Shown in pieces: positions 15,401 to 63,500 of a DNA stretch of 64,000 bases (position 1 is its first letter; each line of letters opens with the position of its first letter). A program made the translations under genes and the position numbers. Location: NCBI GenBank assembly GCA_051294375.1, contig CM119268.1, positions 4,602,666 to 4,666,665 on the forward strand, read 5' to 3'. This DNA comes from Paraspadella gotoi. Lineage: Eukaryota > Animalia > Chaetognatha. The notes beneath the pieces are model-generated. The model was not told the DNA's origin. It did not search any database and saw only the letters and a list, made by a program, of their open reading frames with translations.

Positions 15401-16287
15401 TTGAGCGGTTTAAGAGGATCATTATTAGATTGAGTACCAGAAAATTCCAAGGGAATGAAGCCGTTAATCAATCTGTCAGCGCTAGTTGATTATTTGGGGT
15501 TGGCTCATGTTGTCCGCATCAAGTACTCAAGGGTTAACCTCTCTTTACCGACCTGGTTACAGTTTCTCACATATTAATATTAACGAACGGAAAACGCAGA
15601 CTGCTTCTAAAAAGAAGGAGGGAATGTATTTGGCTCACAAGGCATGCCCCAGGTGGAAAAATCTACCACCAGGTCAGCGACCTTCCGGAGCCGCAAGTCT
15701 GCAATTCTCCTGCCCTTTGCGACCATTATATGCTATGGGTCTCTCTCCTACGCCTCGGAAACCATGTGCAAGGATAAAAGGATCTTTCAACAAAGAGAGT
15801 TCATCGGCTCGACACCTGTGAACAAAAGATACTTTTTCCGAATTTTACAGGAATGCTTTAGAATGTACGAAGAGAGAAGTTGCGGGAAAAAATGATGTGA
15901 GGAGGGAGGTTTGTTTAACGGGGGGTATAGACGTGGAGGTGAGTAGTAGATGGTAATGAGATGTATGATCAGTACAAGGAAGACGAGGAGTAGTGAGAGA
16001 GAGAGAGAGAGAGAAAGCAAGAAGAGTATCAAAGAGAAAAGAAGAGTAACGAAGACGAAAGAGAAGACGTAGAGAGAGAGAGAGACTTGTGATAATTCAT
16101 TGTCTCAACATCAGTTTTTGTTCCTGACCAATATGGGAGGTATCATATTTTACCCTTACTGCGACTATATATATCTAAAGCCGTTCACGTTTGAGATTGC
16201 ATGACTATCTAATCCACACTAATTGGGTCTTCCTCTCTCTCTCTACTCTCTCCTCCGTCTCCTCTCTCATCTCTCTCCTCTCTCTCG
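11555..16287 (+). repeat. Apparently identical direct copy of ~5670-10402 (offset 5885 bp)
   Basis: Every ORF in the track from 5871 to 10306 recurs at +5885 with the same translation, including the error-rich fold-back part. Confidence 0.92.
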
Positions 16288-16990
16288 TCTCTCTCTCCTC
16301 TCTCTCTCTCTCCTCCCTCCTCTGTCTTAATCAAGAGAACCGCAGGGATAAGATTCGCGAAGCGGAGGCGAAGAAAATGGAATTAGAATGAGTCAATGGA
16401 ATGATAAGGTAGTTAAGTGTTTTCAAGTTGTGCTTAAATTCTTAAAATGTAATTTTGACATTGACAATATTGTTTAATGATAGTTTTAAATTAAAAATTT
16501 GGATAAAAATCCAAACTACCCTGAAACTAATTTCAAGATAAAGATATAGATAGATTTTTACAAATATAACGAAAGAACATTTTAAGATGCATCCGCAGTA
16601 ACAACGGACACACCAACCGTAGCCCTCGATTTTTGATGCAAAAAAATCTACCAAGAAAAAAAAAAACGGGGAGTTTCTCCCGCAGATCCAAAACTTTTTC
16701 CGGATATTTCGAGGGACAGAAGCCGAAAGAGAGAGAAATAAAAGGGGCGAAATAAGGTGGAGGGAGTGGAACGAAACAGTCGCAAGAATAAGACAAAAAC
16801 AACAAAAGATGGGGAGAGAAGAGAGAGAGGGAGAAAGAGATAGAGGAGAGAAGAGGAGAGGGGAGGAGAGAGGAGAGGAGGGAGAGGAAGAGAGAGAGAG
16901 AGCAGAGAAGAGAGACAGAGAGAGAGAGGGGAGTAGAGAGATAGGGGAGAGGAGAGAGAGGAGAGATAGAGAGAGAGAGAGAAAAGAGAG

Positions 16991-21601: not shown

Positions 21602-23620
21602 GTTGATTGCAGAGATAAGGACGGAACGACGCCTCTCATTCTCGCTGCAGCCAACGATCATTTGCAGGCGACGAAAGAACTTTTAAATTTTGGCGCCAAT
21701 CCGTCGTGTCGACGTCTCACTGGGACCTCCGCTCTTTTCTTTGCAGCGCAGGTGAATTTATGTTGTTGACGCGTCACCGGGACCTCTGCCCTTTTGTTCG
21801 CTGCTAAAAAGTAGATGTTGTTGTTGTTGTTGTCGTCGATGGTGTGCTTGTTGTTTTTAAATTTGTTTATCTCTCTCTCTTCTCTCCGTTCTCTTCCTCA
21901 TCATCTCTCTCTCTCCTCTCTCTGCTCTTCCACCTTCTCCCCGCAACCAACGAAGGGCGGATACCTCGACGTGGTCAAGGAACCCTCGCCAGGGGCGCTC
22001 CCGTCGATCTCGCCTCCTACGACGCGGCACGCCCCTCGTCGTCGCCGTCCAGTGCTGCAACGCCCACGTCGCCGAGACGCTCGTCGACAGCCGGCGCCAA
22101 CGTCCGACGGCGCCATGCTCGAGGGCGCCACTGTGGCTCTCGTCGCCGATCAGAAAAGGCTTCCCTCAATCTTCTGCGATATCATCATCTCCAGGGTGGG
22201 TGTGAAAAGAGGGAGGTGGGTGTGAAAAGAGGGGTGGGTGAAGTAGCGTGGGTGATTGGCGGGTGAAGCGAGGGGTGAGCGAGCGGTGGCTGAGTGGGTG
22301 GGGAAGGGTGGGTGAGTGTAGTGAAGTGAGGGGTTTGGTAAGGTAGAGTGAGTGGTGGGCGAATTTTAGTTGGTTAGGAGTGGTGGGTGAGGTTAAGGGT
22401 GAGGGGGTGTTGGTGACTGGGTGGGTGAGGGTGAAATATTCTTATTGAAATATTATACCGTTTTCATTGATAGGAAAAAGCCATTTACTCTGGGAGTGAA
22501 TAAACGAGACGTGAAGAGAAGGCTTGATGAAAGCTTGCAAGGGAACCTGCTATGTCATTATCTTGTAAAAGAGTGATGGAGGCTTAAACCACCAAAGCCT
22601 GTCCAAAGGTCAGGCACTTCTCATATGAGGGACGGGTGAGTGGAAGATGTGGGATTTCGGGTGTGTATTTTTTGGCTATGTGATCAAAGAGTTCAAGATC
22701 CTGACCAGTACGATAGCTCATTGGGTCGGGGGAAATTAATTATTTTACAACTGTTTTTCTTTTTCCTTCACTATTTCTCTCTCTCTTCTCACTCCCCCCG
22801 CAATTCATTCGCCAATACGCGTTTTTTCTTCCTCCCCGAATCAGAGCGCCGGACATCAAAACGCGCTCTCGCAAGACGGCGCCAGTCCGCTCTGGATCGC
22901 CTGTCAAATGGGTCAGCTGCCTGTCGTCGAGTTTCTGGTCAAAACGGAGGCCAACGTCCACGCGCGGAAGAGAAGACGGGCCTACGCCCCTTTTTAAAGT
23001 TAGTCGATGGCGATCGATGGTCTAATCGATCAAATCGGTCAATCATCAATTGATCTGTCAGTTAATAAACTATACTGTGAGAGAGTCTCTGTAGGGTCAT
23101 TGCCTGAGGTTGTTATCGTAGTAAAAAGGGATGTGAAAGCTAGCTCACCAATTGCCCTGTCCAAGTCAGGGGGCAGAAGATTATTTATTTGAAATTGAAA
23201 TGGAAAATTTTGATATTAGTTCACTAATTTTATAAATTACATATCAAATTATTAAATTGTTAAATCAATCGTCTCATTCTGTCTACGAATCATTCAAATC
23301 ATGTTCTCCCCCCCCTCACCAAACGGCCGCCCACAAAGGCTATCGGCGAACATCTGCCGAGATTCTCTCTCCGCCGCGGCGCAAGTGCGAAAACTCCTCG
23401 CCAAGCGGAGAGACGCCCTCCCACGCGGCGGCGCTCTTCGGTCACCCCGGCGTCGTCAAGGAACTCGTCGCTCAGCTGGCGTCCCCGCTCGAGATCTCAA
23501 GGAATCGGGAGAACTCGACGCCGGCGAGTTTGGCCTTCGAGGGCCGGGTTCACGGAGGTGGCGTCGTTCTTGGATTCGCTCGTCCGTCGCGTCGATCTCA
23601 GACTCAACAAGACTTTTGAA
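21602..23620 (+). CDS. ANKRD29: Ankyrin repeat domain-containing protein 29-like, copy 1 (5' exon(s) not found; later exons indel-rich)
   Basis: Clean AG/GT exon 21602-21751 encodes VDCRDKDGTTPLILAAANDHLQATKELLNFGANPSCRRLTGTSALFFAAQ. Noisy exons follow at ~21956-22195 (GGYLDVVKE..GAPVDLASYD), ~22845-22998 (DGASPLWIACQMGQLPVV) and ~23325-23620 (AAHKG..GETP.HAAALFGH). Motif order matches ANKRD29 orthologues as I recall them. Confidence 0.85.
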
Positions 23621-26600
23621 AGCGCCTTCACCGCGAAGCCAATGTGTCGAACGGAAGTCTTCCGCAGTCAATCGGTGATTTGCGAGATAAGGTCGTTTCG
23701 CACAGGATCTCCGGCTCCGGACCCAAACCCCTCAGCCCTCGCCCCACGCGCGCCCTAAAATCACCAACACCTTCGACCATTCGAACGATGCCTAATACTT
23801 TTGTCCTCATATCATTGTCTTCCTCTTTTCTTTCCTTCATTTTTTTTCTTTCTCTTCATTTTTAATTCAGTTTTCTTCTTTTTTCTTTTTCTTACCCTCC
23901 CTTTACTTATTCCTTTGTTTTCTTTCGCTTCTCTTGTTTGTTTTTTCTTTTTCTTCTTTGCTTTTTTGTTTGTTTTTTGTCTTCTCCTCTCTTTCTTTTT
24001 CTACCCTATTTCTTTTTTCTTCTCTTCTTTTTTTCTTTTTTCTTCTTCCTCTTTGTTTTCCCTCTCATTCCTTCATCTTGCCTCTTTTTTTTCGATCTTC
24101 CACCCTTTTAATAGTCCTCTTTTTTCCTTTTCCTCCTTTCTTTTCTTTCTTTCCTTTATCTCCCTCTTCCACTTGGTCTTCCCAACTGTCGATGCAAGCT
24201 GAATAATTCATTGGCATATTAATTCCCCCTCTTTTTTTTTACATGAAATCTTCGCCTTTACATTAAAATGAATCTCCTTTAATTGAAAAAGATGAATCGC
24301 TTTCCCACTTTCTCGATCTCTTCCAACAATTCGTCATCCAAGAAAAATATCGCAGCGCAATTTTAATTCTAACGCCGGAAAAAAAAGAATTTCAATCTCC
24401 TACTCCTTTTTTCCCTTTAATTTCTCTTTTTCCAATTTCGCGCAAAAAAAATCCTTTTCCCATCCCCTCTCCATTTAATTTCTCTCACTCCTCTCCATGT
24501 AATCTTCCCAATCCGCCCGGTAATCCTCCCTTTCCTTTCCCCTTTCCCTTCCCCTTCCCCTCCCATTTATCCTCGTCCTCCACCTTCCCCGTTTCTTCTC
24601 CCCGACCCCCGCGGTCATTGCCTTCGAAATAAACTGATTACAAATTTAAAACAAAATCTTTCGCTCCGTTTTAATCTGATTTCTTTTTCAATTTCATAAT
24701 TGCATCCCAAACCAATTGCATGATCACCCTCGTCGCGTTTGAAAACCTATTTTTTGTTTTGTCATTTACATTTATTTTTTTTTCTGGTTAAAATCTGATT
24801 TAGTACAAGATAACTTTTTAAGCAACTTGGAATGTATATGTAATTCTTAAAACTGCAACCTTTTTATAACCGTGTTTTAGAATTTTTTTTTTTTTAATAG
24901 ATCTCTTCTGTGGACAATGATCTTTAATTCTCTCATTCAGTAAATTATTTCGGACATATTTGGATAATGGTGGCTTCCCAAGAAACTATATTAAGTTGAT
25001 ATTTTTTTATTTCTTAAACATTAAAAAACATTGTCGAACTCTACGTAAAACTGTAATTTCTCCATCATTATCCCTTGACTTTACATCAAACCAATTTTCT
25101 TAATTCCATCTTACAGTTATTGTCATCTCATTGGCTACACTTATGTATTTTTTATTGACTGTTTTTTTTGTTTTAGAATTTTGTTATAGCGAAAATACGA
25201 TGTACATTTTCCCTTCACTTAGTTCAAAATAACGTCACTGTAATAATTGTTTTGGTTGTTATTTTTTGTGCTATTTAATTGTATGCGCTTTATTATAGTT
25301 TAAGAATTGTTTTGTTGATACAAAAAAAAACCTTTTAATAACGAAAGAAAAATTAGAGAATTTGAAGAATAATTAAGTATGCATTGAACGTTAGATTAAT
25401 TTATAATTTTATTTATCTATTTCTTCAAAATTTCCAACTTTCGAATAAAAAAGCGGATTAGAATTGATGTTTTTCGTTAGGCCAATCGAACATCAATCAC
25501 ATTTGATTCAAGAAACAATCATTAGCTCTACATTTCACGATCCATGTTTTATTCTAGTTTTACTGATATAATCAAAGATTCACATCTCCATTTTATCTCG
25601 CGCGTTTCACATCTTCTTCATTTACGCTCGGTAATGTATTTTCTATTTTTGCCTTTTCGCGTCAAAAATATTTAAATCAAAACAAAAACTTAAAAAATAC
25701 AAGTTCGAACACAATGCGATCTGCCCACGTATTAGCGGTATGCATATGATCAGATAATAATGTAATTATTAAAATAATTAATTTATTAATTAAATAATTA
25801 ATGTATTAATCAATTTTTTTATTTGCGATAAATCGTTTTCAAATTTGTCTCGCCTCTCAAAAATGACAAAAGGTAATAAATAAATATTAGTTAATAAATA
25901 AAATAATTAATTAATTAATTAATTACTAATTATAAATTAATTATTAAATGAAGCTTGAATTTAACATTTAATATAAAAAGAAAAAAGCAAATAAATAGTG
26001 GAAATATGATTTTTGTTTTTTTTCGGAACCGACAAAGTGGATTTATCAGAGCCGGAAATCTGCTGTAACATTCGGCTAAAAAAGTAAAAACCTCGACGAT
26101 AAAATCTTTCTTGGAATATTCTTTCAACCGCATAAGAGGGTGGAAGTCTCTCCTCTCTCTCTCTCTCTCTTCTCTCAATCTCTCTCTCTCTTCTCTCTCT
26201 CTCATCTCTGCTCTGCTCTTTTTTTTTTTTCAATTTATTAGTACGCAAGCTTCATTTAAAAGTAGTGCTATAATCAAAAAACATTTTTTTTACTATAAGT
26301 TATAAAAAAACACAAAGAACAACTTTAAAAAACTTTTTTTCAAGAATTGAAATTGTCTGCATCAGTTACAAAATCAAGAAATCAAGAAAGATAATTAATT
26401 TAAGAGGAGACAGATAATTCTTTGTACATATTAATGATATAGCAAATCAGACGACGAGAATTTGAATACTTTCATATTTTTAAAATCTGTAATTCGACTA
26501 AACCTTAGGCCGCAGTAAAGGAGAAACAAAATAATCAGTCTTACGTTTTACTGTCTTTTTTTTTTTTTACCTTTTCCAATCAGAAAACGACACAAGAATT

Positions 26601-26628
26601 GAACGAAACCTACGACCCCGTAACTCAA

Positions 26629-26669
<41 letters not shown>

Positions 26670-29600
26670 CTCTCTCTCATCGCTCTTCCATCCTCCTCTC
26701 TCTCTCTCTCTCTCTCATCTCTCTCTCTTCCCTTTGTCTCTTCTCCCTCATTCAGGTCATTCCTGACCCAAGAGAATTTTAAAACTTTCACGAATCGTCG
26801 CTCATGCGATTCGGATCATCCATCCATCGTCGGAATTCGCCTTTCACTTCCTCGCATTTCGCCGCTCGCCCTTTCGCATTTCGCCGATAACCCATCGTCG
26901 TTCGCCTTTTCCCGATCAACGGGTGACTCGGCGAATTATTTCCTTTTCACCTTTCACACAACCGATATGGAGTCGACGAGGGACGGCATGCACAGACGAG
27001 AGATACGATACGATCACGAGAGTTATTATGCGATCACAATAAGTCAGTTATAATCGCTAGAGTTACGTATGCTATATGGATGGATACGTCATGATAAATA
27101 TTAAAATGAAATAACAAGGAAAATGAATTCGATATATGATGAATTAATAATGTGATCAACGAGTTATAGGGTACGAGGAATAACATGCGCTCACAATGCA
27201 TAAAACGATATCACCATTGCTGATGCGTTCCCGTTGATTCGTGTCACAGACGTTAATTTTTTTGAACGTGAACGAGCTATAGAATTGTGAGATCAAGAAG
27301 GCAAAAAAAAAAGAAGCTTTTCTAAAGAAAATCTGGATTGTGAAATTGAAAAGTTGATTCCGTAAGAAGAAATTTGAAAGGTGTCAAATTCCTCGTCGTC
27401 GTCGTCGTCCGTTTTCGTTCTTTTCTTTGCACGTCATAGTTACAAGCGTCGTCGTCGGTTTAGTCATCATGCGTCGTCACCGTCGTCGTCATATTCATCG
27501 TCGTTCGTTATCGTCATTGTCATAGTCGTCATCGTCATCGGTTTCGTCGTCATCGTCGTCGTTATCGTCGGCGTCATCGTAGCTTTCAATGAAGCTAAAA
27601 AAGTTGAGGTCGAAGATCGAAACTGAACGAAACTTGGTGGGGGGGTTAGGTGGGATGAGGTGGGTTAAGGTGGGTTAAGGTGGATGAGGTGGGTTAAGTG
27701 GGATGAGGTGGGGTGAGGTGCGGCTGAGGATTGATTATTGTCCCTAAATTAAATACTTCAAAGCAGTTTATTCATCGAGAGAATATCACTGGTGATTTAG
27801 AGGTGAATACGTGATCAGGTGAAATCAGTTTGTTCCCTTTGTATAATATATCTCTGTACCGAAGTCTTAACTTTATAGTTGGGCGACTACATTTAAGAAA
27901 AAAATATACCGAATCTCTTAAGAAAATGACGTTTCTGCCTCTTTTTTTATTTTGTTTGAAAGTCAATGAGAAAAACACTTTTGTAGTCGTCAATGTTGTG
28001 TTTTCAGACATGGTCGTCGTGTCGTCGTCGCCTTCTGTCGTCGTCGTCGTCGGTCGTCGTCGTCGTCATCCGGGGTCGTAGATCCCACTTCGCATCCCAA
28101 CTCGCCTTCGACATTCTCGACGTTATTGTTGTTGTGTTGCTTTGTTGTCGTCTTCGTTGTGAAATGTGAATTGTGAAGTGAGGGAGATAAGTGAGAAGTG
28201 ATTGAGACGAAATTGTGATGATGACGACTGATGAGAAGAATCTTCTTCTCCCGTAATTTTTCACTTTTTTCTTGAGATTCCATCTCTAAGGTATTCAGAT
28301 GTACAACATATAACATAAATCTTGATATAGACTGTCCCAACCAATATTATTCCTTTCATACAATTGAAATAGTTTATATCAGAAACATTACAGATTTTCA
28401 TTAATAGAGAAGAGAAGTGGTCTGGAAATAATTAACTCAAATATGTGAGTGTCCTCTTGATTGAAAGCTTGAATGCAGACCGACAGAGTCTCTCTATGTT
28501 ATTTCATATTAGGGTGATGGAGCCAAGATCCCGCAACTTAGTTACTGACATAAAATCTATTTCTTGTTGTTTGTATTTAAGAAAACATTGAATCATTAAA
28601 AAAGTAAACTCTTTTCAATTTTTCCATTTCAAAACTCCGAAAACCTTTGAGCCTTTACCAGGCGCTTATGACCTGACTCACTTTATTTAACCCATGAAAG
28701 TCAAAAGTGAACCTTTCTTGATTTAAACCGACAACAACACACGACAACAGCAACAACCACACATCGACCCTCTCACGTTTCAACAACAACAAGCCAAAAT
28801 AAACATTCCAAGACTCGGATTCGAACGAACATTTCGAACGATGACTCCTTCACCAGCAATGACGGCCGATCGAGATTTACGCCGCGCGCCGCACGCAAAC
28901 CGCCGTCGCACCCGCAGCAGCCGCCGCCGCTCAGGATTCGACGTTGGCGAAAACAGCCATCGCTTCTGATTGGAGGAACGGATTTCCCCGTTCGTCATTG
29001 CTCAATTCTCAATTTTCCACTTTTCGCTCGCGCAATTTCGATCCTTCGGACCAACATCCGCCGCAGACTCCTTTCCTCCTCCTCCTCCTCCTCTTCCTCC
29101 TCCATTCTGTCTCTTATCCTCCTAGATTTCCCGTCTCCACCAAAAGACTTTACCACCAAAAACCACCTTAACCACCTCATCTTTAAAAACTTACCTTCTC
29201 TGTTTTAACTTCAAAATCAAGCCTTTCCTAACCGTCTTCATCTGTCCATACGAGACCCAGCGGCCTTGTTTTACTAAATGCCCCCTAAATTCGTAATTAG
29301 TGAGTTTGAAATTTAAAGATTAAGTTAAAGATTAGGTAAAGATACGATTTTGAGATTAGGGTTGGGTTCTACATTAGGGTTGGGGATTAGGGTTAGGGTT
29401 ATGACTATAGACAAAGATTAATTATTCAAGATAAAAATAAGTTTAGCGATAAGGAACAGAAATGGAACGTTTTTTGGAAAGAGAGCCGCCACAACCACCA
29501 CCAAGCACTCGACTGTCTCTACCACTATCTAATCCTCTTCCTCCTCCTCTCCTCCTCCTCCTCCTCCCCCTTCACACTCCCAACAGTCCGTCCGCGTCCG

Positions 29601-29869
29601 ACGCGCCTCTCGACTCCTTCTCCCTTCTCAGCCGACGACGACGCCCCTCGCGCGCGTGAAGGAGGCGACTCCGGCGGAGAAAAAAAAAAACCAACACGAG
29701 ACCGAAGCGCCATCTTTTTTTTTTTCTCCGAGACCGTCGTCGCAGTCGCACGTCGACGTCGGAAATAACGCGCGCGCGTCGTGCGCAGATATATCGAGGG
29801 GGGGGAAAAATCCTCTCGCTCTCCTGTATTCATTCCACGAGGAGAAGAGAGAGTGAGAGACGCCCCAGG

Positions 29870-29960
29870 AAATGGGGGAGGAAGGCGAAAGCCCCCGGAG
29901 ATGGAAACGGTCGTCATCACGAGAGCATTCAAGGCGGCGGCGGCGCTCATGGGGTTATGT
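29870..29960 (+). other. TMEM47: Redundant copy of TMEM47-like exon 1 (inside the duplicated block)
   Basis: ATG at 29901 gives METVVITRAFKAAAALMGL(C), followed by GTGTGAGT. It matches 38531-38590. Confidence 0.7.
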
Positions 29961-30704
29961 GTGAGTTGATTTATTTTTTTTTTGTGTGTGTGTGTAGGGG
30001 AGAGAGAAGGGAGGGTGACAAGGTCTGTTTTTTTTGGGGGGAGGCTGACTGGCTGTAAGGGAGAAGAGGTGAAAAGGGTTAATTTTTAAAAAAAATTAAA
30101 TGTCGATCTTTATCGAGAATGGTTTAGTTTAATTATTGACGTGAATTAGTTGCAGTGTTGACGCGTTTGTCTATGTATAGTATAGTTTCCTGCCGATGTA
30201 AAAAAAATCATTACATCATAAAAAAAAAACATAACAAGTTGTATTTTTTCTACAAAATTTAATTTTTTTCCCTTGTAATCATTTTACAACGAAACTAAGT
30301 ACCGTAAAATGTTCAAAAACTAAGACATATTATCTTGAATTCATCTCATACCAAATTGCTTACAAACATCAATGTCGATGACAGCTTGCAAATTCACATC
30401 TATCACCGGTAAATTCACCAACGACGACAACAAACAACAACGAATTACGTTTCAATTTAAATTCACTGATTCGCCAATCGAAATCACATCTTTGCTTTTC
30501 AGTTCGACTCAGCGTGAATCAAATCCATCTTCTTTTCTTTCTTTTTTTTTTTGCGATCGAAACTGAAAAAACTTGAAAACGAGAAAAAAAAAGAAAATAA
30601 AAGACAAAAGAAAACAATTAATCAACTGATCGAAAATCCCCCCCTTGGAAAAAAATTTAAAATAGATTGATTTGGTTGCNNNNNNNNNNNNNNNNNNNNN
30701 NNNN

Positions 30705-32301
30705 ATGGCGCCACCTGTGCCTTCGTCGCCGCTCAGAACGGCTTCCTCAATCTTCTGCGATATCTCCATTCCAAGGGTGGGTGTGAAAAGAGGGAGGTGG
30801 GTGTGAAAAGAGGGGGGTGGGTNNNNNNNNNNNNNNNNNNNNNNNNNNNNNNNNNNNNNNNNNNNNNNNNNNNNNNNNNNNNNNNNNNNNNNNNNNNNNN
30901 NNNNNNNNNNNNNNNNNNNNNNNNNNNNNNNNNNNNNNNNNNNNNNNNNNNNNNNNNNNNNNNNNNNNNNNNNNNNNNNNNNNNNNNNNNNNNNNNNNNN
31001 NNNNNNNNNNNNNNNNNNNNNNNNNNNNNNNNNNNNNNNNNNNNNNNNNNTTAAGGTGAGGGGTTGGTGACTGGTGGGTGAAGGGTGAAATATTCTTTGA
31101 AATATTATACCTTTTCATTGATAGGAAAGCCATTTACTCTGGGAGTGAATAAACGAGACTGTGAGAGAGTCTTGATTGAAAGCTTGCAGGGACCTGCTAT
31201 GTCATTATCTTGTAAGAGTGATGGAGGCCTTAAACCACCAAAGCCTGTCCAAAGTCAGGGGCAATTTCATATGAGGGACGGGTGAGTGGAAGATGTGGGA
31301 TTTCGGTGTGTATTTTTTTGCTAGTGTGATCAATGAGTTCAAGTCCTGACCAAGTACGTAGCTCATTGGTCGGGGGAAATTTAATTATTTTTACAAACTG
31401 TTTTTCTTTCTTCCTTCACTATTTTCTCTCTCTCTTCTCCCCTCCCCCCCGCAATTCATCGCCAATCGCGTTTTTCTTCCTCCCCCGAATCAGGCGCCGA
31501 CATCAACGCGCCTCGCAAGGACGGCGCCAGTCCGCTCTGGATCGCCTGTCAAATGGGTCAGCTGCCTGTCGTCGAGTTTCTGGTCAAAAACGGAGCCAAC
31601 GTCCACGCGCGGAGAGAAGACGGGGCCACGCCCCTTTTTAAAGTTAGTCGATGGCGATCGATGGTCTAATCGATCAATCGGTCAATCATTCAATTGATCT
31701 GTCAGTTAATAAACTATACTGTGAGAGAGTCTCTTGTAGGGTCATGCTGTGTTGTTATCTAGTAAAAGGGATGAAAGCCTTAGCTCACCATTGCCTGTCC
31801 AAAGTCAGGGGGCAAGATAGATTATTTATTGAATGAATGGAAAATTTTCATATTAGTTCTACTAATTTTATTAATATTACATCAATTATTAAATTGTTAA
31901 ATCAATCGTCTCATTCTGTCTTTACCGAATCATTCAAATCATTTCTCCCCCCCCCCACCAAGGCCGCCCACAAAGGCTTCGGCGACATCTGCCGAGTTCT
32001 CCTCCGCCGCGGCGCCAAGTGCGAACTCCTCGCCAACGGAGAGACGCCTCTCCACGCGGCGGCGCTCTTCGGTCACCTCGGCGTCGTCAAGGAACTCGTC
32101 GCTCACGGCGTCGCTCGAGATCTCAAGAATCGGGAGAACTCGACGCCGGGCGAGTTGGCCTTCGAGGCCGGGTTCACGGAGGTGGCGTCGTTCCTTGGAT
32201 TCGCTCGTCCGTCGGTCGGACTCAGACTCAAAGACTTGAACGCCTTCACCGCGAGCCAATCGTCTTCGTCGAACGGAAGTCTTCCGCAGTCGATTCGGTG
32301 A
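30705..32301 (+). CDS. ANKRD29: ANKRD29-like, copy 2 (last three exons)
   Basis: Exon end ~30705-30775 (FVAAQNGFLNLLRYL). Exon ~31494-31642 (ADINAPRKDGASPLWIACQMGQLPVVEFLVK..GATP.FK, with indels). Exon 31963-32301 (AAHKGFGDICRVLLRRGAKCELLANGETPLHAAALFGHLGVVKELVAHGVARDLKNRENSTPGELA...). Confidence 0.85.
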
Positions 32302-35250
32302 TTTGCGAAGATGAGGTCGTTCGCCAGGATCTCCGGCTCCGGACCCAACACCCCCTCCCCTCGCCCCACGCCCCTAAAATCACCCAACACCTTCGACCAT
32401 TCGAACGATGCCTAACTTTTTGGTCTCATTCATTGTCTTCCCTCTTTTCTTTCCTTCATTTTTTTTCTTTCCTTCATTTTTATCAGTTTTCTTCTTTTTT
32501 TCTTTTTCTTCCTCCTTTACCTTATTCCCCTTTTTTTTCTTTCCTTCTTCTTTGTTTGTTTTCTTTTTCCTTCTTTTCTTTTTTGTTTGTTTTTGTCTTC
32601 TCCTCTCTTTTCCTTTTTCCTCCCTTTTCTTTTTTTCTTCTCTTCTTTTTTTCTTTTTTCTTCTTCTCTTTGTTTTCCTCTCATTCCTTCCATCTTTCCT
32701 CTTTTTTCGATCTTCCACCCTTTTTAATATCCTCTTTTTTTCCTTTTTCCTCCCTTTTCTTTTTCCTTTCCTTTCCTTTTATCTCCTCCTTCTTCACTTG
32801 GTCTTCCCAACTTCGATCAAGCTGAATATTCATTGCATATGAATCTCCCCCTCTTTTTTTTTAACATGAATCTTCGCCTTTACATTAAAATGAATCTCCT
32901 TTAATTGAAAAAGATGAATCTCTTTCCCACATTTCTCGATCTCTTCCACATTTCGTCATCCAAGAAAAATATCGCAGCGAATTTTAATTCTACCGGAAAA
33001 AAAAAAGAATTTCAATCTCCACTCCTTTTTTTCCCTTTTTTTTCCTTATTTTTTTGTTCTTTTGTAGTTCCCCCTATTTTCTCTTTTCCAATTTTCCCAA
33101 CAATCCTTTCTCCCATCCCCTCTCCATTTAATTTCTCTCAACTCCTCTCCATGTAATCTTCCCATTTCCCGCCCGGTAATTCCTCCCCTTTCCCCTTTCC
33201 CCTTTCCCCTTTCCCCTTTCCCCTCCCATTTATCCTCTCCTCCCATCTTTCCCCGTTTCTTCTTCCCCGACCCCCGCCGGTCATTGCCTTCGAAATAAAA
33301 AAACTGATTACAAATTTAACAAAATCTTTCGCTCGTTTTAATCTCATTTCTTTTTCATTTCATAATTGCATCCAAACCAATTGCATGATCACCCTCTCGC
33401 GTTTGAAAACCCTATTTTTGTTTTGTCATTTACATTATTTTTTTTCTGTACAATCTGATTTAGTACAAGATACTTTTAGCAATTGATGTATATGTAATTC
33501 TTAAAACTGCAACCTTTTATTACGTGTTTAGAAATTTTTTTTTTTTTAATAGATCTCTTCTGTTGGACAATATCATTTAATTCTCTCATTCAGTAATTAT
33601 TTCGGACATATTTTGGAAAGGTGGCTATCCCAGAAACTTAAAGTTGATATTTTTATTTCTTAACATTAAAAACATTGTCGACTCTACGTAAAACTGTTAA
33701 TTTCTTCCATTCATTCATCCCTGCTTTACATCAAACAATTTTCTTAATTCATCTTACAGTTATTGTCATCTCATTGGCTACACTTATGTATTTTTTATTG
33801 ACTGTTTTTTTTGTTTTTAGAATTTTGTTATAGCGAAAAACGATGTACATTTTCCCTTCCACTTAGTTCAAAATACGTCACTGTAATAATTGTTTGGTTG
33901 TTATTTTTTGTGCTATTTATTGTATGCTGCTTTTATTATATTTAAGATTGTTTTGTTGATACAAAAAAAAAACCTTTTTAATAACGAAAGAAAAAATTAG
34001 AGAATTTGAAGATAATTAAGTAATGCATTGAAGTTAGATATAATTTATAATTTTATTTAATCTATTTCATTCAAAATTTCAACTTTCGAATAAAAGGGAT
34101 TAGAATGATGTTTTCGTTAGGCCAATCGAACAATCAATCACATTTGATTCAATAAACAATCAGTTGCTCTACTATTTCAACGATCCCTGTTTTATGTCTA
34201 GTTTTATATCTGATATCAATCAAAGATTCACATCTCATTTTATCTCCGCGTTTCACATCTTCCTTCACTTCACGCTCGGTATGTATTTTCTATTTTGCCT
34301 TTTCGCTCAAAAATTTAAAAATCAAAACGTAAAAATAAACAACAAAAAACTAAACAATTAAAAATAACAAGTTCGAACAAACAATGCCGGATCTGCCCAC
34401 GATCATTAGCGGTATGCATCTGATCAGATAATTAATTAATTATTTAAATAATTAATTTATTAATTAAATAATTAATTATTATCAATTTTTTTCATTTGCG
34501 ATAAAATCGTTTTCAAATTTGTCTCGCCTCTCAATGACAAAGGTAATAAATAAATTAATTAGTTAATAAATAAATAATTAATTAATTAATTAATTACTAA
34601 TATATAAATAATTATTTAATGAAGCTTGAATTTACATTTAATATAAAAAGAAAAAAGCATAATCAAATAGTGAAATAGATTTTTTGTTTTTTTTCGGACC
34701 GACAAAGTGGATTATAGAGCCGGAATCTGCTGTAAACAGATTCGGCTAAAAAGTAAAAACCCGACGATAAATCTTTCTTGGATTTCTTTCAAAACCGCTA
34801 GAGGGTGGCGTCTCTCTCTCTCTCTCTTCTCTCAATCTCTCTCTCTCTTCTCTCTCTCTCATCTCTGCTCTGCTCTTTTTTTTTTTTCATTTATAGTACG
34901 CAAGCTCATTAAAGTAGTGCTATATCAAAAAACATTTTTTACTATAAGTATAACACAAGACAACTTTAAAACCTTTTTTCAAGAATTTGAATTGTCTGCA
35001 TCAGTTACAAAATCAAGAAATCAAGAAAGAAATTAATTAGAGGAGACAGATAATTCTTTTGTACATATTAGATATAGCAAATCAGACGACGAGAATTTGA
35101 TACTTTCATATTTTTAAAATCTGTAATTCGACTAACTTAGGCCGCAGTAAGAGAAACAAAATAATCAAGTCTTACGTTTTACTGTTTTTTTTTTTTACCT
35201 TTTCCACAGAAAACGACACAGAATTGACGACCTACGACCCCGTAAACTCG

Positions 35251-35303
<53 letters not shown>

Positions 35304-36644
35304 CTCCTCCTCTCTCTCTCTCTCTCTCTCTCTCATCTCTCTCTCTTCCCTTTTCCTCTCTCTCCCTTCATTCAGGTCATTCCTGACCCAGAGAATTTTA
35401 AAACTTTCACGAATCGTCGCTCATCGATTCGGATCATCCATCCATCGTCGGAATTCGCCTTTCACTTTCCTCGCATTTCGCCGCTCGCCCTTCGCATTTC
35501 GCCGATAACCCATCGTCGTTCGCCTTTTCCCGATCAACGGTGACTCGGCGATTTTTCCTTTCACCTTTCACCACCGATATCGAGTCGACGGAGGGACGGA
35601 TGCGATCACGAGAGATACGATACGATCACGAGAGTTATTATGCGATCACAATAAGTCAGTTATAATCGCTAGAGTTACGATGCTATATGGATGGATACGT
35701 CATGATAAATATTAAAATGAAATAACAAGGAAAATGATTCGATAATGATGAATTATATGTGATCACGAGTTATACGGTCACGAGGAATAACATGCGCTCA
35801 CAATGCATAAAATGATATCACCATTGCTGATGCGTTCCCGTGATTCGTGTCACAACGTTAATTTTTTTTTAACGTGAACGAGCTATAGAATTGTGAGATC
35901 AAGAAGGCAAAAAAAAAGAAGCTTTTCTAAATCGGATTGTGAATTGAAAAGTTGATTCCGTAAGAAGAAATTTGAAAGTGTCAAATTCCTCGTCGTCGTC
36001 GTCGTCGTTTTCGTCTTTGTCTTTGCAGTCATAGTTACAAGCGTCGTCGTCGGTTTCGTCATCATCGTCGTCAGCGTCGTCGTCATATTCATCGTCGTCG
36101 TTATCGTCATTGTCATAGTCGTCATCGTCATCGGTTTCGTCGTCATCGTCGTCGTTATCGTCGGCGTCATCGTAGCTTTCAATGAGCTAAAAAAGTTGAG
36201 GTCGAAGATCGAAACTGAACGAAGACTTGGTGGGGGGGTTAAGGTGGGATGAGGTGGGTTAAGGTGGGTTAAGGTGGGATGAGGTGGGTTAAGGTGGGAT
36301 GAGGTGGGGTGAGGTGCGGCTGAGGATTGGATTTATTGTCCCTAAATTAAAATACTCAAAGCAGTTTATTCATCGAGAGAAATTATCAACTGGTGATTTA
36401 GAGGTGAATACGTGATCAGGTGAAATCAGTTTGTTCCCTTTATAATATATCTCTGTACCGAAGTCTTTAACTTTTATAGTTGGGCGACTACATTTAAGAA
36501 AAAAATATACACGAATCTCTTAAGAAAAATGACGTTCTGCTCTTTTTTTAATTTTTGTTTGAAAAGTCAATGAGTAAAAACACTTTTGTAGTCGTCAATG
36601 TTGTGTTTTCAGACATGGTCGTCGTCGTCGTCGTCGCCATTTCT

Positions 36645-36675
<31 letters not shown>

Positions 36676-38503
36676 TCCGGGGTCGTAGATCCCACTTCGC
36701 ATCCCAAACTCGCCTTCGACATTCTCGACGTTATTGTTGTTGTTGTTGCTTTGTTGTCGTCTTCGTTGTGAATGTGAATTGTGAAGTGAGTGAGATAAGT
36801 GAGAAGTGATTGAGACGAAATTGTGATGATGACGACTGTGAGAAGAATCTCTTCTCCCGTAATTTTTCACTTTTTCTTGAGATTCCATCTCTAAGGTTAT
36901 TCAGATTGTACAAACATATAACATAAATCTTGATATAGACTGTCCCAACCAATATTATTCCTTTCATACAATTGAAATAGTTTATATCAGAAACATTACA
37001 GATTTTCATTAATAGAGAAGAGAAGTGGTCTGGAAATTAATTAACTCAAATATGTGAGTGTCCTCTTGATTGAAAGCTTGAATGCAGACCGACAGAGTCT
37101 CTCTATGTTATTTTCATATTAGGGTGATGGAGCCAAGATCCCGCAACTTAAGTTACTGACATGAAATCTATTTCTTGTATTGTTTGTATTTAAGAAAACA
37201 TTGAATCATTAAAAAAGTAACTCTTTCAATTTTTCCATTTTCAAAACTCCGAAAACCTTTGAGCCTTACCAAGGCGCTTATGACCTGACTCACTTTATTT
37301 AACCCATGAAAAGTCAAAAAGTGAACCTTTTCTTGATTTAAACCGACAACAACCACGACAACAGCAACAACCACAACATCGACCCTCTCACGCTTTCAAC
37401 AACAACAGCAAAATAAACATTCAAGACTCGGATTCGAACGCAACATTTTCGAACGATGACTCCTTCACCAGCAATGACGGCCGATCGAGATTTACCGCCG
37501 CCGCCGCCGCAAACCGCCGTCGCACCCGCAGCAGCCGCCGCCGCTTCAGGATTCGACGTTGGCGAAAACGCCCATCGCTTCTGATTGGAGGAACGGATTC
37601 CCGTCGTCATTGGCTTCAATTCTCAATTTTCCACTTTTCGCTCGCGCATTTTCGATCCTTCGACCAACATCCGCCGCAGACTCCTTTTCCTCCTCCTCCT
37701 CCTCCTCTTCCTCCTCCATGTCTGTCTCTTATCCTCCTAGATTTTCCCGTCTCCACCAAAAGACTTTACCACCAAAAAACCCACCTTAACCACCTCATCC
37801 TTTAAAAACTTACCTTCTCTGTTTTAACTTCAAATCAAGCCTTTCCTAACCGTCTTCCATCTGTCCATACGAGACCCAGCGGCCTTGTTTTACTAAAATG
37901 CCCCCTAAATTCGTAATTAAGTGAGTTTTGAAATTTAAAGATTAAAGTTAAAGATTAAGGTTAAAGATACGATTTGAGATTAGGGTTGGGTTCTACATTA
38001 GGGTTGGGGATTAGGGTTAGGGTTAATGACTATAAGACAAAGATTAATTATCAAGAATAAAAATAAGTTTAGCGATTAAGGAACAGAAATGGAACGTTTT
38101 TTGGAAAAGAGAGCCGCCACAACCACCACCAGCACTCGAGCTGTCTCTACCACTATTCTAATCCTCTTCCTCCTCCTCCTCCTCCTCCTCCTCCCCCCTC
38201 TCCACACTCCCAACAGTCCGTCCGCGTCCGACGCGCCTCTCGACTCCTTCTTCCCTTCTGCAGCCGACGACGACGCCCTCGCGCGCGTGAAGGAGGCGAC
38301 TCCGGCGGAGAAAAAAAAAAACCAACACGAGACCGAAGCGCCATCTTTTTTTTTTTTCTCCGAGACCGTCGTCGCGAGTCGCACGTCGCACGTCGGAAAT
38401 AACGCGCGCGCGTCGTGCGCGGATATATCCGAGGGGGGGGAAAAATCCTCTCGCTCTCTGTATTTATTCCACGAGGAGAGAGAGAGAGTGAGAGACGCCC
38501 AGG

Positions 38504-52355
<13,852 letters not shown>

Positions 52356-54261: not shown

Positions 54262-57200
54262 ATGCCCTCGGATCCTCTCGTCAACGCCGTTAAGAATCGA
54301 GACGTCAACGTCGTCAAACGGCTTTTGGAAGAGGTGGGGTTTGTTTGATGAAGGAGACTGAAAACTTATAACAAAAAAAGGAATAATTAATCCATTAATT
54401 GTTTAAATAAACAAAGGTGAGTTCTTGAATAGGGTCCCATTATTAATAACTGAATGAATGAACGAAGGACGAAGGGAATGAATAGAAACAAGAACGAATG
54501 GCTGTTTCAATTTTAAAAATTGTCTCACGTCGTAATCACTAATCCAATTTATACCCAACTCTAAAATTCATTAAACTTACCCATTTCTCACCAAATCGTC
54601 ATTACCGCGATTTCCCTTCGCTCAATTAATAACCAACACCTTCCCCCCCCCCCGACCCCCCCCAAAAAAAGGGTCACGACCCCAACGCCTCTGACTCCGA
54701 GGGTCGGTCCGCCCTCGATTGGGCCGTCATCCGGTCCAACTTGGAATTCGTTCGAGTTTTGCTCGACAAGGGAGCGGACGTCAACCGAAGGGGAAAGGGA
54801 GGGAAGACGGCGATCCATTGGGCCGTTCGTTACGCCCTCGACGAACGCATCCTGACGCACCTCAGAGGCTTCAACGCCGACCTCGAAGTCACCAACGACG
54901 CGACGGACAATGTCCTCCACGCCGCCGCGTGAGTTGTCGATGTTGATGATGTTGCGGCGAATCCTAAATTCGCTTCCCGTATAGCTTGGTGAAACTCGGC
55001 TCGTTCCATTGGTTTGGACAGCTAAGTACTCGTTCACCAAGCGTGAGTTCCGGGTTCAATCCCCTCATGCTGATTAAAGTGTGATGGTGTCGGCATAAAC
55101 ACGCCAGTGACTTGGGGTGGCCACTGCAGGTCACTGCAGGTCCAAAGCCCTGAGCGCCAGCTGTTGGGAGATGCCTCACACCCCGGGCATCAGATATGTC
55201 CCCCCGTTGCCATAATGTCATGAATTCGGTACAATCGATACAAAAATTATCTCTGCTTTTAAAAAAATACGCTATCGTGTCGCCTGACTTTGGACAATGG
55301 ACAATGGACATTGGACAATTGGACAATGGACATGGTATGGTGGATTAAGCCCTCCATCCATCTTACAAGATAATAACATAATACTTAAGGGAGTGGTCTT
55401 GTAAGAGTGATGGAGGCCTTAAACCACCAAAGTCAGGGGCAAGATAGTGTGGCAGCAAGACTTAAAGCTGCCTCACTGCTGTCCGTCCTCAGCCTCGTCT
55501 CAATGGCTGAGCAGGCTAAATCATCTCATTCCATCCGTGCGTCTCGGGTTCAATCCCTGGGTATCCCGGTTCTGGCTTAAATGCTACGGTGCCGGTATAA
55601 ACATGCCAGTGACAGGAGGCGGTCACTGAGGGTCCGCAGCCCCTACGCCAGTTGGTGAGATACCCCGCGCCCCGGGTATCACAGACTATCCTCCCGTTGC
55701 CATAATAGCTTATTTATTAAATGAATGGATAATTTTTATACTCGTTGTACCAATTTCATAACAAGATCCTGCAAGTTTTTAATCAAGTCTTTCTCATTGT
55801 CTAGTTTATTGATTCCTACAGCGAACGAATCAAGCAAGCGTTTTGAATTGTTAAATAGTTCGTTGTATGGTTTTTATTTATTTGTTTGTTTTACATCGTT
55901 GTCGATTGTGTCTTTCTCCGTTGACAAAGTGTTGCACTAGGTTTTTTCTTGCAGGTTCTTCTTTTCTGTTCAATAATTATTTCTATTTTTAATATTCACC
56001 AACCACCATCCGAACCTTACCCTCTCCATCTCACCTTTCCCTCCTTTTTCCAGTTACTATGGCAACGCGATAGGGATCGACTTCTGTCTGAATCAAGGCC
56101 TCTCACTCTCGACCATAACCTCCAAGTACGGCTACACTCCGCTGCTCCGTGCCGCCCGAGGATTCGCCGACGAGTCGATCCTCGATCACCTCGTCCGTCG
56201 AGGAGCGGACGTGACGGTCAAGCGGACGGGGGATGGGCAGAACTTCCTGCACTGCGCCGCTAAAGGTTGGTGGGGGAACGATGCTTAACTTACCTTAAAA
56301 TTTGTAGTATTTTTTTTGTGATTTGCAACTTTTTTCATTATCAATATCATACTTTTTTATTAAATAATCAATTCTTTTCCACTCTCGTTTCTTTCCTCGT
56401 TCTCTTTCTGCCAACTTTCCCCCCCTTTTGCCAAAGGCCTCAACGAAGAGGCCATCAAATGGGGCCTCAAGATGGGCATCTCCGCCGACGACGTCTCCGA
56501 CATCGGGACCACGCCCATCCAGCACATGGAGCGTTGGGCCGAGATCAAATCCCAGAGAGACAAGGAGGCCTTCAAGAACATCAAGCTCATCTTGGAGACC
56601 GCCTCCCATATCGACGTGGGGGCGATCCGGGTGGAGAGTGGTGGAACGCCCTGGCGGGAAGGTAGTGGCTGGGGGATGGGGGAGGTGGCTATTATATATT
56701 ATTTTTAAGTATTATATAATATATATTATATATCTTATTTTAGTTCTAATGTTTTATGTTACTTTCAAATTTTAAAATTTTCACATTTTCACTCATTTTT
56801 CCTATATTTATTACAATATTATTGATTATTGTCATTTTACATTTTCTACGTTTTGGTTTCTTTGTCGTTCTTGGTTGGTGTTTTTATCTCTCGGATAAGG
56901 TTTGTATAAATTAAAGCAGTAAATATTATTTATTCTTATTATTTTTTCAAACTTACGTCCCTATCACACCATAATATAAAGTAACTAAACTCATCTTTCA
57001 AACTAGTTCATTTTCATTTCATTTTCATTTTCATTTTCACTGGCCTCGGACCGTCATATTTAGCGAGTGAACCGAGATGGCCGAGTATTGCAACCAGGAT
57101 GCCCGGTTTAATCTTTGCCTCTCAGATATATTGACGCTCCTAAAAAAGACCGGTAGAAAAATCCATCTATTGTCAATCGTAAGGGACTCGAACCCGAGTT

Positions 57201-60515: not shown

Positions 60516-63500
60516 TCAGGCCACCACCAACCCGTTTCTCTTCCTCCCGTCCTGTTCTTTAATCATAGAATAAGGATATTCCTCTTCTTCGCCCGATGCC
60601 TCGTCCAACTTGTTCATCTCCTCGTCGCTAAGCGACCAACCGTCGGCCGCCGCCATATTGGATTCCAGTTGAGAGAGACGGGAGACGCCGACGATGACGG
60701 AGGCGACGAAGTCCTTTTGGATGGCCCAGCGGAGAGCCACCTGGGGGTTTAATCGAGAGATAGTCGCTGTGTTGTTTAAGATCGTATAAATTTTTTTTTT
60801 TAAATAATGTGTCCATTTTAAGTATTCATTATCCACACAAGGCTGTCTCTTCTATCATTTCTTGGGCGATTTCTTTCGAGCATTCGCCTGTTGTCCCGTA
60901 ACTCAACCAAACTTACTTGATCCAAAATCCAAAATCCCGCCGGCCGATCTTAGATTTTGATCCCTTGCTGCGTCCATTTTTTCTAACCTTTTATGGTGGA
61001 CTAAAACCCACCAACCGTTCATCAGCGGCCATTGGTGCCGGAAGCAAGTCATTCGCCTCCCAACCCAAAGGTCCGGGGTTCTAGCCCGGTGGTCATCTGG
61101 CAGTTAAGAGGGACGGGGCGCTTAACCCGCCTGTAACATGGTGTTACAGCCTGATCCGAAGCTCAGGGACTGCTTATATTGAACGGTTCTATCACTAACT
61201 CATAACAATAATTACTGTCTCTTCATTGGTGAGCCCGACTTCCGAACACAACAGCAACAACAACACTTTCAGGCAACATGCCTCAACCTGGCGATGCACT
61301 TTCCGCCCACAACACATCAGGCGACATGCCTAAATTTGGTGACGCAGTTTCCACCAACAACAACAATTCACTGAAGAGACGCAACAGACATCTTCCTACG
61401 GGAGGGGGGGATGTATGGTGGACTAAAACCCACCAACCGTTCATCAGCGGCCATTGGTGCCGGAGGCAAGTCATTCGCCTCCCAACCCAAAGGTCCGGGG
61501 TTCTAGCCCGGTGGTCGTCTGGCAGTTTAGAGGGACGGGGCGCTTAACCCGCCTGTAACATGGTGTTACAGCCTGATCCGAAGCTCAGGGACTGCTTATA
61601 TTGAACGGTTCTATCACTAACTCATAACAATAATTACTGTCTCTTCACTTTAAATCTTTATTACACCATCAATTTTTATTATTCCTTACCTCGGCCATGG
61701 AACGACCCTTATTCTCAGCGATCGATCGCATTACGTCGAGAAGATGAAACGTCTTTTCGTTACGGAGCGCGTCTCCCATAGCAGTCTGGGAATTATAATA
61801 GTGATAAAATAATAACATTAATAAACATTAATTTTATATTTAGAAAACCGTAATATATGTTACATGATGTAAGTAGAAAGACAATTTTGATTAAGGTAAA
61901 CAAATCCTGTTATAAAAAGGGCCTTTTGTTTGTAAACCTCAGCTCTGAATCCAGTTTTATTTGCGAAGTCTTGTCTCGATCCCTCGGGAGGCGCTTGGTC
62001 TCTCGTTATCTTTCCCGTCAACCAACCGCCCTTTCGATCGGAAGGATAACAATTATTACGTATATTATCATATATAAATTTAATCATTATTATTATTACT
62101 AACCTTTAAAGGACTCCATGGCAAAACACCGATGTTTTCATTGCGACAGACTTGCACGACCTGGGAAAAGTATATGAAATTAAAAACTAGTTAATGAGGG
62201 GTTTTTTCAATGACTTTTTCATTCTCCTCACTTCTTTTCATACCTCATCAAAAATAAATACAAATTTCCCGTTCTACACACAAGTGCGACAAGATCAGAA
62301 CTTTTATCATTGCCTACACCAGAATAAAGCGTACAGTACAAACCAATGCAATCAAACGCATCGAAACCTTTAAGACCAGAATACAAACCAAACCGATGCA
62401 AACAAATGAAATCAAAAGAGTTTTGACTTCAAACTTCGGAATACAACGTACAGACCAAACCAATACAATCAAAATCAATCAAAACCAGCATCAGAATTCC
62501 CGGTAGCGTCAAAACCGAATCAATTGCAATCAAAACTTCTTTAACCTCAGTCTCGATTCCTCTCGACAACAGACTGTATTGCATCTGCGCCGTCACCACA
62601 TTCTCCATCCCCATGAACTTGGCGTAGTCGCAGATCTTCTGCAACTGCCATCCAGAGACGTTGCAGACGCCAAGGTAGCGCACCTTGCCCGCGCGGACGG
62701 CGTCGTTGAGGGTCCTGAGGGTTTCCTGAGAGAGAGGGGAAAAGAGAGGAAAGGAGAAGCAAAGTAAAGAAAGATGGAAAGAAAGAAAGAAATATGTAAA
62801 GAGAGAAAGAAAGATGAAAAGAGAGAAAGAAAGATGAAAAGAGAGAAAGAAAGGTGGGAAAAAGAGAGAAAGAGAAAAATAAAAGAAAGAAAGAAAGAAA
62901 GAGAAGAAAGAAAGAAAAAAGAAAAAGAAAAAAGACAGAAAGTTTAAGACAGAGAAAGCGAGAATATGTGTAAGAAAGATAGAAAGAAACAGAACGTGAG
63001 AAAGAGAGAAGAAAGAGAGAGAGAAAGAAAGAGAAGAAGAAAGAAAATGACAAAGAAAAAATATCGTAATTGGCGGAAGTGGAAACATGAATAAATCGAA
63101 TTCAAAATTTAAAAACGTAAGGTCCATATATTTATAAATTTCATAATATACTATTATCTAAATTTTAACTAATTCCCCCCCTCCAACCTTCAAATCCGTC
63201 CCTTCGTCCCATCCGTTATCTGATAAAGATCGATGTAGTCCGTCTTCAGTCTCTCCAAACTTTGGCTCAGACTCCAAAGGATGTACGTCTCGAGAGGCCC
63301 GTCCCGTTGGCGGCGGATCAGCTTCGGTCAAGTAGCGGACCTTTGTGGCCACGACGTAATGGTGGCGGGGCTGTAAGGCGAATGGCGGTTGGAGAGGTGG
63401 TGGGGTATTAGCAAATGTTAATGTAATGGTCGCACCGACGATATTTAATGTATTATATTGGACACGGTGAAAAGGATTACGATTCTTTTAACGTCTAAGA

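Follow-up and report, generated by a model that had tools for sequence, protein, structure and literature searches.

The closest described systems to the element treated here are the Helenus elements, the long terminal repeat (LTR) retrozymes of plants, the non-LTR retrozymes of animals, and the twister ribozyme variants found at the 5' end of Schistosoma Perere-3. The element is a 656-bp unit at 60992-61647 of a 64,000-nucleotide stretch of the Paraspadella gotoi (Chaetognatha) genome (GenBank assembly GCA_051294375.1, contig CM119268.1, positions 4,602,666 to 4,666,665 of the forward strand), and this whole stretch is called the window below. The unit is almost certainly a terminal-repeat retrotransposon in miniature (TRIM), a non-autonomous miniature LTR retrotransposon. 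Each of its LTRs carries a tRNA-like module, and the motif behind this module is very probably a true homologue of the twister ribozyme.

Helenus elements (the proposed TRIMp3 group; Kojima 2024, PMC10886601) are described as shorter than 1 kb, with two LTRs, a primer-binding site (PBS), a polypurine tract (PPT), a tRNA-like sequence in the LTR, and a 4-bp duplication of the animal type, and the element shares all of these. A tRNA-Trp PBS is also given there for Helenus-2_SyJa and Gypsy-32_NVi. In contrast to the elements of that paper, the tRNA-like module here lies early in the LTR, has no T-run behind it, and is followed by the twister-type motif; moreover, the LTRs start with TA and the A-box lacks TRGCY. 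By Kojima's working definition, a TRIM with tRNA-derived LTR sequence, the unit can be classed as a Helenus-type element, and the sequence-only reading that first proposed this assignment was right. The element is new to that set as far as six probes show: these probes, of 10 to 11 letters, are absent from the Kojima supplement, whose line breaks can hide matches. The text of PMC10886601 does not contain the word twister, and has ribozyme in a reference title only.

Helenus-2_SyJa and Helenus-2_SyUm from Synergus wasps (PMC10886601 supplement) share with the element the Trp PBS, a similar LTR start, and a tRNA-like segment followed by a self-cleaving-ribozyme motif. Read by eye, their printed LTRs hold what looks like a whole type III hammerhead, its loops complementary, after the tRNA segment; the text of the paper does not mention it. 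They differ from the element in this ribozyme class, in the LTR of 277 bp and the interior of ~485 bp, and in the lack of any shared probe sequence.

Plant LTR retrozymes (Cervera et al. 2016, PMC4918200; de la Pena and Cervera 2020, PMC7761336) resemble the element in being non-coding, with a ribozyme in each LTR, a PBS and a PPT, a 4-bp duplication, solo LTRs, and an inferred Gypsy helper. As presented in these papers, they have type III hammerheads, a tRNA-Met PBS, and circles of 600-1000 nt shown experimentally, and no tRNA-like promoter is reported in them. In contrast, the host here is an animal, the motif is of the twister type, the PBS is of the Trp type, and the unit is a predicted one of 422 nt; Rfam gives no hammerhead match in the element. 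Since the ribozyme class differs, the element is not an LTR retrozyme as defined in plants, but by analogy it likely works like one. Animal non-LTR retrozymes (Cervera and de la Pena 2020, PMC7229834; bioRxiv 10.64898/2026.07.22.740005) share the animal host and a small inter-ribozyme unit, and in the accounts cited there is precedent for dimeric cutting by ribozymes and, on the basis of assays, for circularisation by RtcB. On the other hand, they are tandem repeats with type I hammerheads, longer duplications, and a link to Penelope, and have no LTR, PBS, or PPT.

The Perere-3 twister variants (Liu 2021, PMC8501958) share a weak or variable P1 stem, the link to a retrotransposon, and the core layout. 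As described there, the motif is single, belongs to an autonomous non-LTR element, and follows the P1-type order, whereas the element has two copies in P5-type order within its LTRs. According to the literature consulted, as far as it was accessible, LTR retrozymes occur in plants and carry hammerheads, the retrozymes of animals are non-LTR repeats, and the sole tested retrotransposon role of a twister found in it concerns a non-LTR element. Unpublished work is cited in one review, both on type III hammerhead elements of insects and on RTE elements with truncated twisters. In a search judged mostly from abstracts and covering few subscription journals, neither a twister in LTRs or TRIMs nor the combination of a tRNA-like segment with a twister in LTRs was found described.

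The twister-type motif of the LTRs

The motif was read against the twister consensus from Liu 2021, Gebetsberger and Micura 2016, and McKinley 2024, and catalytic-role labels were assigned by position in the published layout. In LTR numbering, P5 (109-114/177-182) opens the motif, the general-base G121 and A122 precede a pseudoknot strand (123-125 with 165-167), and the linker (126-131) leads to the predicted cut U132/A133. P2 (135-137 with 117-120, one bulge) is followed by GC at 138-139, which pairs with 170-171, by P3 (140-146/152-158), and by P4 (159-163/172-176), which has 5 bp. The core letters and two pseudoknots are present in consensus order, and the order N^AA, GC, L4 ending in AAGC, and a G-A-N-G-G strand is that of natural twisters as given in Liu 2021 (PMC8501958). 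P1 is absent, and in its place a fully self-complementary linker of 6 or 8 nt occurs in three of three families, namely that of the element and two sister families, A and B, represented in the window by solo LTRs. The linker duplex energies in the three families are -8.3, -9.5, and -10.9 kcal/mol. The motif cores of LTR1 and LTR2 are identical, and the catalytic G and A and the pseudoknots are intact in the family of the element. Moreover, the LTR fold has a z of -2.87 (2/200 shuffles) and shows an ordered multi-stem domain behind the tRNA-like module.

A strict descriptor of the motif has four matches in the window, all of them in LTRs (LTR1, LTR2, the solo LTR of the same family, and 55083-55152 in family A). 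The same descriptor has a single match in 5,064,240 nt of shuffled window, and none at the 29 loci that share the P4-L4 18-mer by chance. With a relaxed descriptor the window has five matches, again all in LTRs, and only family B is added. The LTR of family A has no BLAST similarity to that of the element (best E 2.1) and gives a partial Rfam Twister-P5 match of 20.3 bits (E 0.016), below the gathering score of 37.6 bits; family B scores 15.2 bits with the Rfam twister model, for which the gathering score is 67.2 bits. The first pair in the long pseudoknot is C-G in the family of the element and in B, U-A in A, and G-C in the Schistosoma table, and the letters of P2 and P4 differ between families yet still pair. 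Conservation of the core in all three families, with compensatory changes and with a linker that stays self-complementary, implies selection on function.

According to the sources consulted (PMC5408937, PMC11662667), P1 is dispensable and imperfections or bulges in P2 are tolerated, and what matters is the catalytic G and A and the pseudoknots. The twister is probably active in the family. In a modelled fold of a transcript with both LTRs, the two domains would pair by exchange of their P3 and P5 strands. Cutting as a dimer has been reported for some ribozymes (Weinberg 2019, PMC6765202). Paired cutting is a preference and not a finding; given the published tolerance for a missing P1 and an imperfect P2, the motif may also be a monomeric mini-twister.

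Other candidates in the same region were rejected. Relaxed ARAGORN calls of Tyr and Leu tRNAs over the twister region are attributed to the multi-stem fold of the ribozyme, Rfam matches to sR38 and other snoRNAs to chance, and a 5S-like or hammerhead reading of the 3' half of the LTR was dropped, as Rfam gave it no support.

Replication route and competing explanations

The tRNA-like module that accompanies the twister-type motif is real but worn. Its spacing from A-box to B-box is tRNA-like (44 nt), and GGTTC of the B-box is kept in three of three families, with one B-box mismatch in the family of the element. ARAGORN at default settings finds no tRNA in the LTRs, and Rfam has no tRNA match at E<=10. 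Under relaxed settings, ARAGORN reports a 73-nt Gly(CCC) pseudogene in LTR2 at -ps85 (shuffles 11/500), and in LTR1 only at -ps80 (shuffles 48/500). A hand-made descriptor of acceptor helix, A-box, and B-box matches LTR2 (shuffles 2/20,000) and misses both LTR1 and the solo LTR at 51658-51904. Two common family variants, at 61515 (~10% of depth in two runs) and 61518 (~40%), turn a G-U of the acceptor helix into G-C. The tRNA-shaped module with A and B boxes that the sequence-only reading saw in each LTR is indeed there, in a degenerate form that is damaged in LTR1. That reading also had the TRIM right, together with its fixed ends and its 4-bp duplications, but the twister-type motif, which alters the likely replication route, escaped it.

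By analogy with retrozymes, a route in which intact family members replicate through a circularised 422-nt RNA is somewhat favoured. RNA polymerase III (Pol III) would start near LTR position 34 in the tRNA-like module of the 5' LTR and, because the element has no T4 run on the + strand, would read through to the first such run, a T5 at 61673. Both twisters would then cut at U^A, likely paired via their self-complementary linkers, and the predicted product, 61124-61545, would have 5'-OH and cyclic-phosphate ends. As in retrozymes, a host ligase of the RtcB type would close this unit into a circle. A Gypsy-type reverse transcriptase, primed by tRNA-Trp, would copy more than one turn and rebuild both LTRs without strand transfer. 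Finally, the integrase of the presumed helper would insert the copy with a 4-bp duplication, a footprint that is observed, and LTR-LTR recombination would leave solo LTRs. If both sites were cut, the unit would lack terminal redundancy, and closing it into a circle would thus be the simplest means of restoring two LTRs. The junction of the predicted circle is identical to LTR sequence, and the circle as a whole is modestly structured (fold z -2.5, 2/100 shuffles). The wider proposal, an animal LTR-retrozyme lineage that combines a Pol III promoter with a P1-less twister cutting as a pair and gives unit circles from thousands of copies, is plausible and is put forward tentatively.

Several results speak against parts of this proposal. 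P2 in the family of the element has two direct pairs and a third over the bulge, and Rfam gives no twister match for this family at E<=10 in the three of three scans covering the motif. Nearest-neighbour folding, which ignores pseudoknots, favours a hairpin that blocks the T1 strand and P2 (-27.4 vs -19.2 kcal/mol) and forms neither P2 nor the linker-linker duplex; plant retrozymes are described as also folding with the ribozyme blocked. The strict descriptor was written post hoc, after the motif had been mapped on this LTR, which makes its figure of 2 in 20,000 LTR shuffles optimistic, and the fourth match, in family A, is therefore the real test. The variant 61580 G>A, found at 11% and 3% of depth in two runs, breaks a pseudoknot pair, and in family B the general-base G and one A of L4 are changed. 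On the side of the promoter, TRGCY of the A-box is absent from the family of the element and present in family B, and LTR1 has two changes absent from LTR2, at 61043 (A-box GG) and 61095 (acceptor helix), which damage the 5' promoter, so that the copy may have ceased to act as a source of new insertions. The lack of a T4 run carries no statistical weight, as 941 of 5,000 shuffles are likewise free of one. Pairing in the predicted circle is 52%, below the >70% given for animal retrozyme repeats in the source consulted. Moreover, the helper expected by the sequence-only reading was not found, and a YxDD-type scan of the six frames of the window gave no match.

Among the alternatives, an ordinary Helenus-type TRIM survives best and is nevertheless unlikely. 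Its linear RNA would start by Pol III in LTR1 and undergo normal strand transfer over a repeat region of LTR positions 34-132, and the twister would be silent or would cut once; in the single-cut variant, it cuts in LTR2 only and supplies a defined 3' end in place of a terminator. The terminal redundancy of an uncut transcript suffices for such standard replication, and the predicted blocking hairpin, the imperfect P2, and the miss by Rfam agree with a silent motif. In addition, most of the Helenus LTRs inspected by eye in the published set have no such motif yet spread. In contrast, the identical cores in both LTRs tell against this explanation, and the core, compensatory changes, and self-complementary linker kept by three families suit paired cutting.

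A retrozyme fed by read-through or by Pol II host transcription, in which the twisters would excise the unit from whatever transcript runs through it and the tRNA-like module is a worn relic or a processing site, is improbable. The poor A-box and the B-box mismatch of the family, the lack of an Rfam or default ARAGORN tRNA call, and the position of four of four insertions in or beside genes are in its favour, and plant and animal retrozymes have been proposed, in the papers cited above, to depend on read-through transcription. However, the 44-nt box spacing and the GGTTC of all three families remain tRNA-like, family B has canonical boxes, and the variants in the acceptor helix preserve its pairing.

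If the preferred reading, a circularising element with paired twisters, is true, an abundant LTR element of animals that has twin twisters as well as a tRNA promoter would bridge TRIMp3 and retrozymes, and the twister would gain a defined job in LTR retrotransposition. It would also be a natural dimer-type twister, and the 74-nt motif and the 422-nt unit would allow a cheap direct test of genomic twister function. Taken with the hammerhead of the wasp Helenus-2 elements, it would mean that LTRs with a promoter plus a ribozyme evolved repeatedly, and not always with the same ribozyme. Routine annotation of repeats, tRNAs, and Rfam families would overlook or mislabel such elements.

Anatomy, copies, and dispersal

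LTR1 and LTR2 differ at three places over 234 bp (61043/61465, 61095/61517, and 61106/61528) and are 98.7% identical. All three window copies of the family are bounded by TA...CA and not by TG...CA. The size is below 1 kb and the PBS, which starts one base past LTR1, and the PPT lie exactly at the interior borders, as expected of a TRIM. A 4-bp duplication flanks four of the four insertions examined (two of two copies of the family and two of two sister solo LTRs). The LTRs of ~99% identity, the Trp-type PBS, the PPT, and the CTTT duplication of the sequence-only reading are all confirmed (Table 1). Its claim of no coding capacity holds in that nothing is long enough for a reverse transcriptase or integrase, and needs correction in that a stop-free frame of 104 codons (89 from Met) runs from the interior into LTR2; by its predicted length, this frame is far too short for either enzyme. 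The description of the element as young has the 1.3% LTR divergence as its sole basis, and no empty site appears among the 15 of 68 joints listed.

Table 1. Positions in the window of the element, its parts, related solo LTRs, and the host intron.
Feature	Positions	Strand	Details
Left target-site duplication, CTTT	60988..60991	+	longest flanking duplication 4 bp
5' LTR (LTR1), 234 bp, TA...CA	60992..61225	+	loose contig ends pile up at 60991/60992 and 61225
tRNA-like module of LTR1, putative Pol III promoter	61025..61097	+	A-box-like 61033-61044 (damaged at 61043), B-box 61077-61087; ARAGORN -ps80 only
Permuted (P5-open) twister-type motif, LTR1	61100..61173	+	general-base G 61112, self-complementary linker 61117-61122, predicted cut after 61123
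Interior, 188 bp	61226..61413	+	two more worn PBS-like starts, 61289 and 61337
PBS, tRNA-Trp type	61227..61239	+	12/13 letters match the tRNA-Trp complement as drawn in Kojima Fig. S2
PPT, 12 purines	61400..61411	+	before LTR2
3' LTR (LTR2), 234 bp	61414..61647	+	repeat comparison, contig ends
tRNA-like module of LTR2	61447..61519	+	A-box-like 61455-61466, B-box 61499-61509; ARAGORN -ps85 Gly(CCC) pseudogene
Twister-type motif, LTR2	61522..61595	+	descriptor; predicted cut after 61545
Right target-site duplication, CTTT	61648..61651	+	longest flanking duplication 4 bp
Predicted cut-to-cut RNA unit, 422 nt, putative circle precursor	61124..61545	+	cut spacing
Solo LTR, same family	51658..51904	+	ATAA duplication; twister motif intact, tRNA module broken by 10-nt deletion and 23-nt insertion
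Family A solo LTR, 262 bp	54953..55214	+	TG...TA, ATGT duplication, B-box 55053, twister motif with 4-bp P2 and 8-nt linker
Family B solo LTR, 257 bp, related to A	55448..55704	+	TG...TA, ATAG duplication, canonical A-box 55504 and B-box 55547, decayed twister
GT-AG intron of aldo-keto reductase gene, 949 nt	60741..61689	-	Pfam PF00248 on two exons; element antisense inside

Evidence on dispersal comes from the window and from contigs of public sequencing runs (8 runs of 11). The loose-end figures are taken from the 24 of 778 rows listed; the contigs of runs X1 and X5 reach just 25-29 letters into the LTR at its own locus, and a 31-letter rule applies. Loose ends lie at the exact LTR termini in four of four runs, with a flank agreement of 0.41-0.63 among the rows listed. 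In run X1, 46+23+35+53 contigs exit at the 5' ends and 58+56 at the 3' ends, with an agreement of 0.41-0.45 among the rows listed. The summed contig depth of the same run is 0.7-1.0 million over the interior and ~180-300 over the flanks, a ratio of 1,250-5,500, which is not a copy number and is taken to mean very many copies only. Two copies of a tRNA-derived short interspersed element (SINE), or an assembly duplication mimicking LTRs, would account for the tRNA-like head and would fit the large near-duplicates and low-quality sequence elsewhere in the window, but this explanation is highly improbable and largely refuted because contigs leave at fixed LTR termini without A-tails into unrelated flanks, the PBS and PPT stand at exact LTR borders, a single duplication surrounds the whole unit, summed depth is very high over the interior too, and 4-bp duplications flank all four insertions. 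The unit is a multi-copy TRIM and not two SINEs, as the sequence-only reading had it.

Many departures from the majority sequence are common to both LTRs, and therefore the copy at 60992-61647 belongs to a minor subfamily. CpG-type changes make up 14 of the 31 variant rows at a level of at least 2%, which fits copies that are decaying and likely methylated. None of the ten twister core letters is among the 30 variable places listed, and as ~25% is the chance expectation for this, it is not counted as conservation. Decay-type variants (e.g., 61448, 61496, 61543, and 61580) are several-fold rarer in run X7 than in run X2. This would hint at selective transcription of intact copies if X7 is RNA; its kind is not on record. 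Head-to-tail LTR-LTR joints (61647 to 61414) occur in 3 contigs of run X2 and 6 of run X7, one with 4 letters between, and represent either insertions lying side by side or LTR junctions that became integrated.

Runs X10 (organism B) and X11 have just 2 and 1 low-depth contigs on the LTR, which are no evidence for other hosts. Metagenome scans with a 20-letter probe gave no match, and the 29 loci matched by the 18-letter P4-L4 probe are dismissed as chance (longest match 26 letters; Rfam 0 of 20 scanned).

The interior seems built of three worn units (61227, 61289, and 61337), each with a PBS-like start and then CAA-rich sequence. In addition, an inverted repeat at 61436-61444/61601-61609 (LTR positions 23-31/188-196) encloses the tRNA-plus-twister core in the folded LTR, and in the modelled two-LTR RNA it would pair LTR1 with LTR2.

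Genomic setting

The intron that holds the element belongs to a gene whose protein has 14 matches, the named ones being five gastropod proteins at 57-62% and one bacterial protein; further searches gave no named match. Together with the spliceosomal introns of the genome, these matches by themselves point to a host that is likely an invertebrate. One contig of run X8 joins across exactly 949 nt of this intron, and the joint is read as splicing, although no record describes X8 as an RNA run. Large near-duplicates (96.8% and 91%) and extended T-rich stretches of poor quality lie at 5056-16830, 22393-39324, and ~41000-50600, which suggests that the assembly is faulty in places over the left two thirds of the window.

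The solo LTRs of families A and B are 234 bp apart, inside an intron of an ankyrin-repeat gene, and that of family B sits within another repeat, which recurs near 31198-31251 and 31698-31811. The solo LTR at 51658-51904, ~9 kb away from the 656-bp element, lies in sense orientation, with ~30 bases between it and the apparent acceptor site of an exon for a membrane protein labelled claudin-like without a Pfam match.

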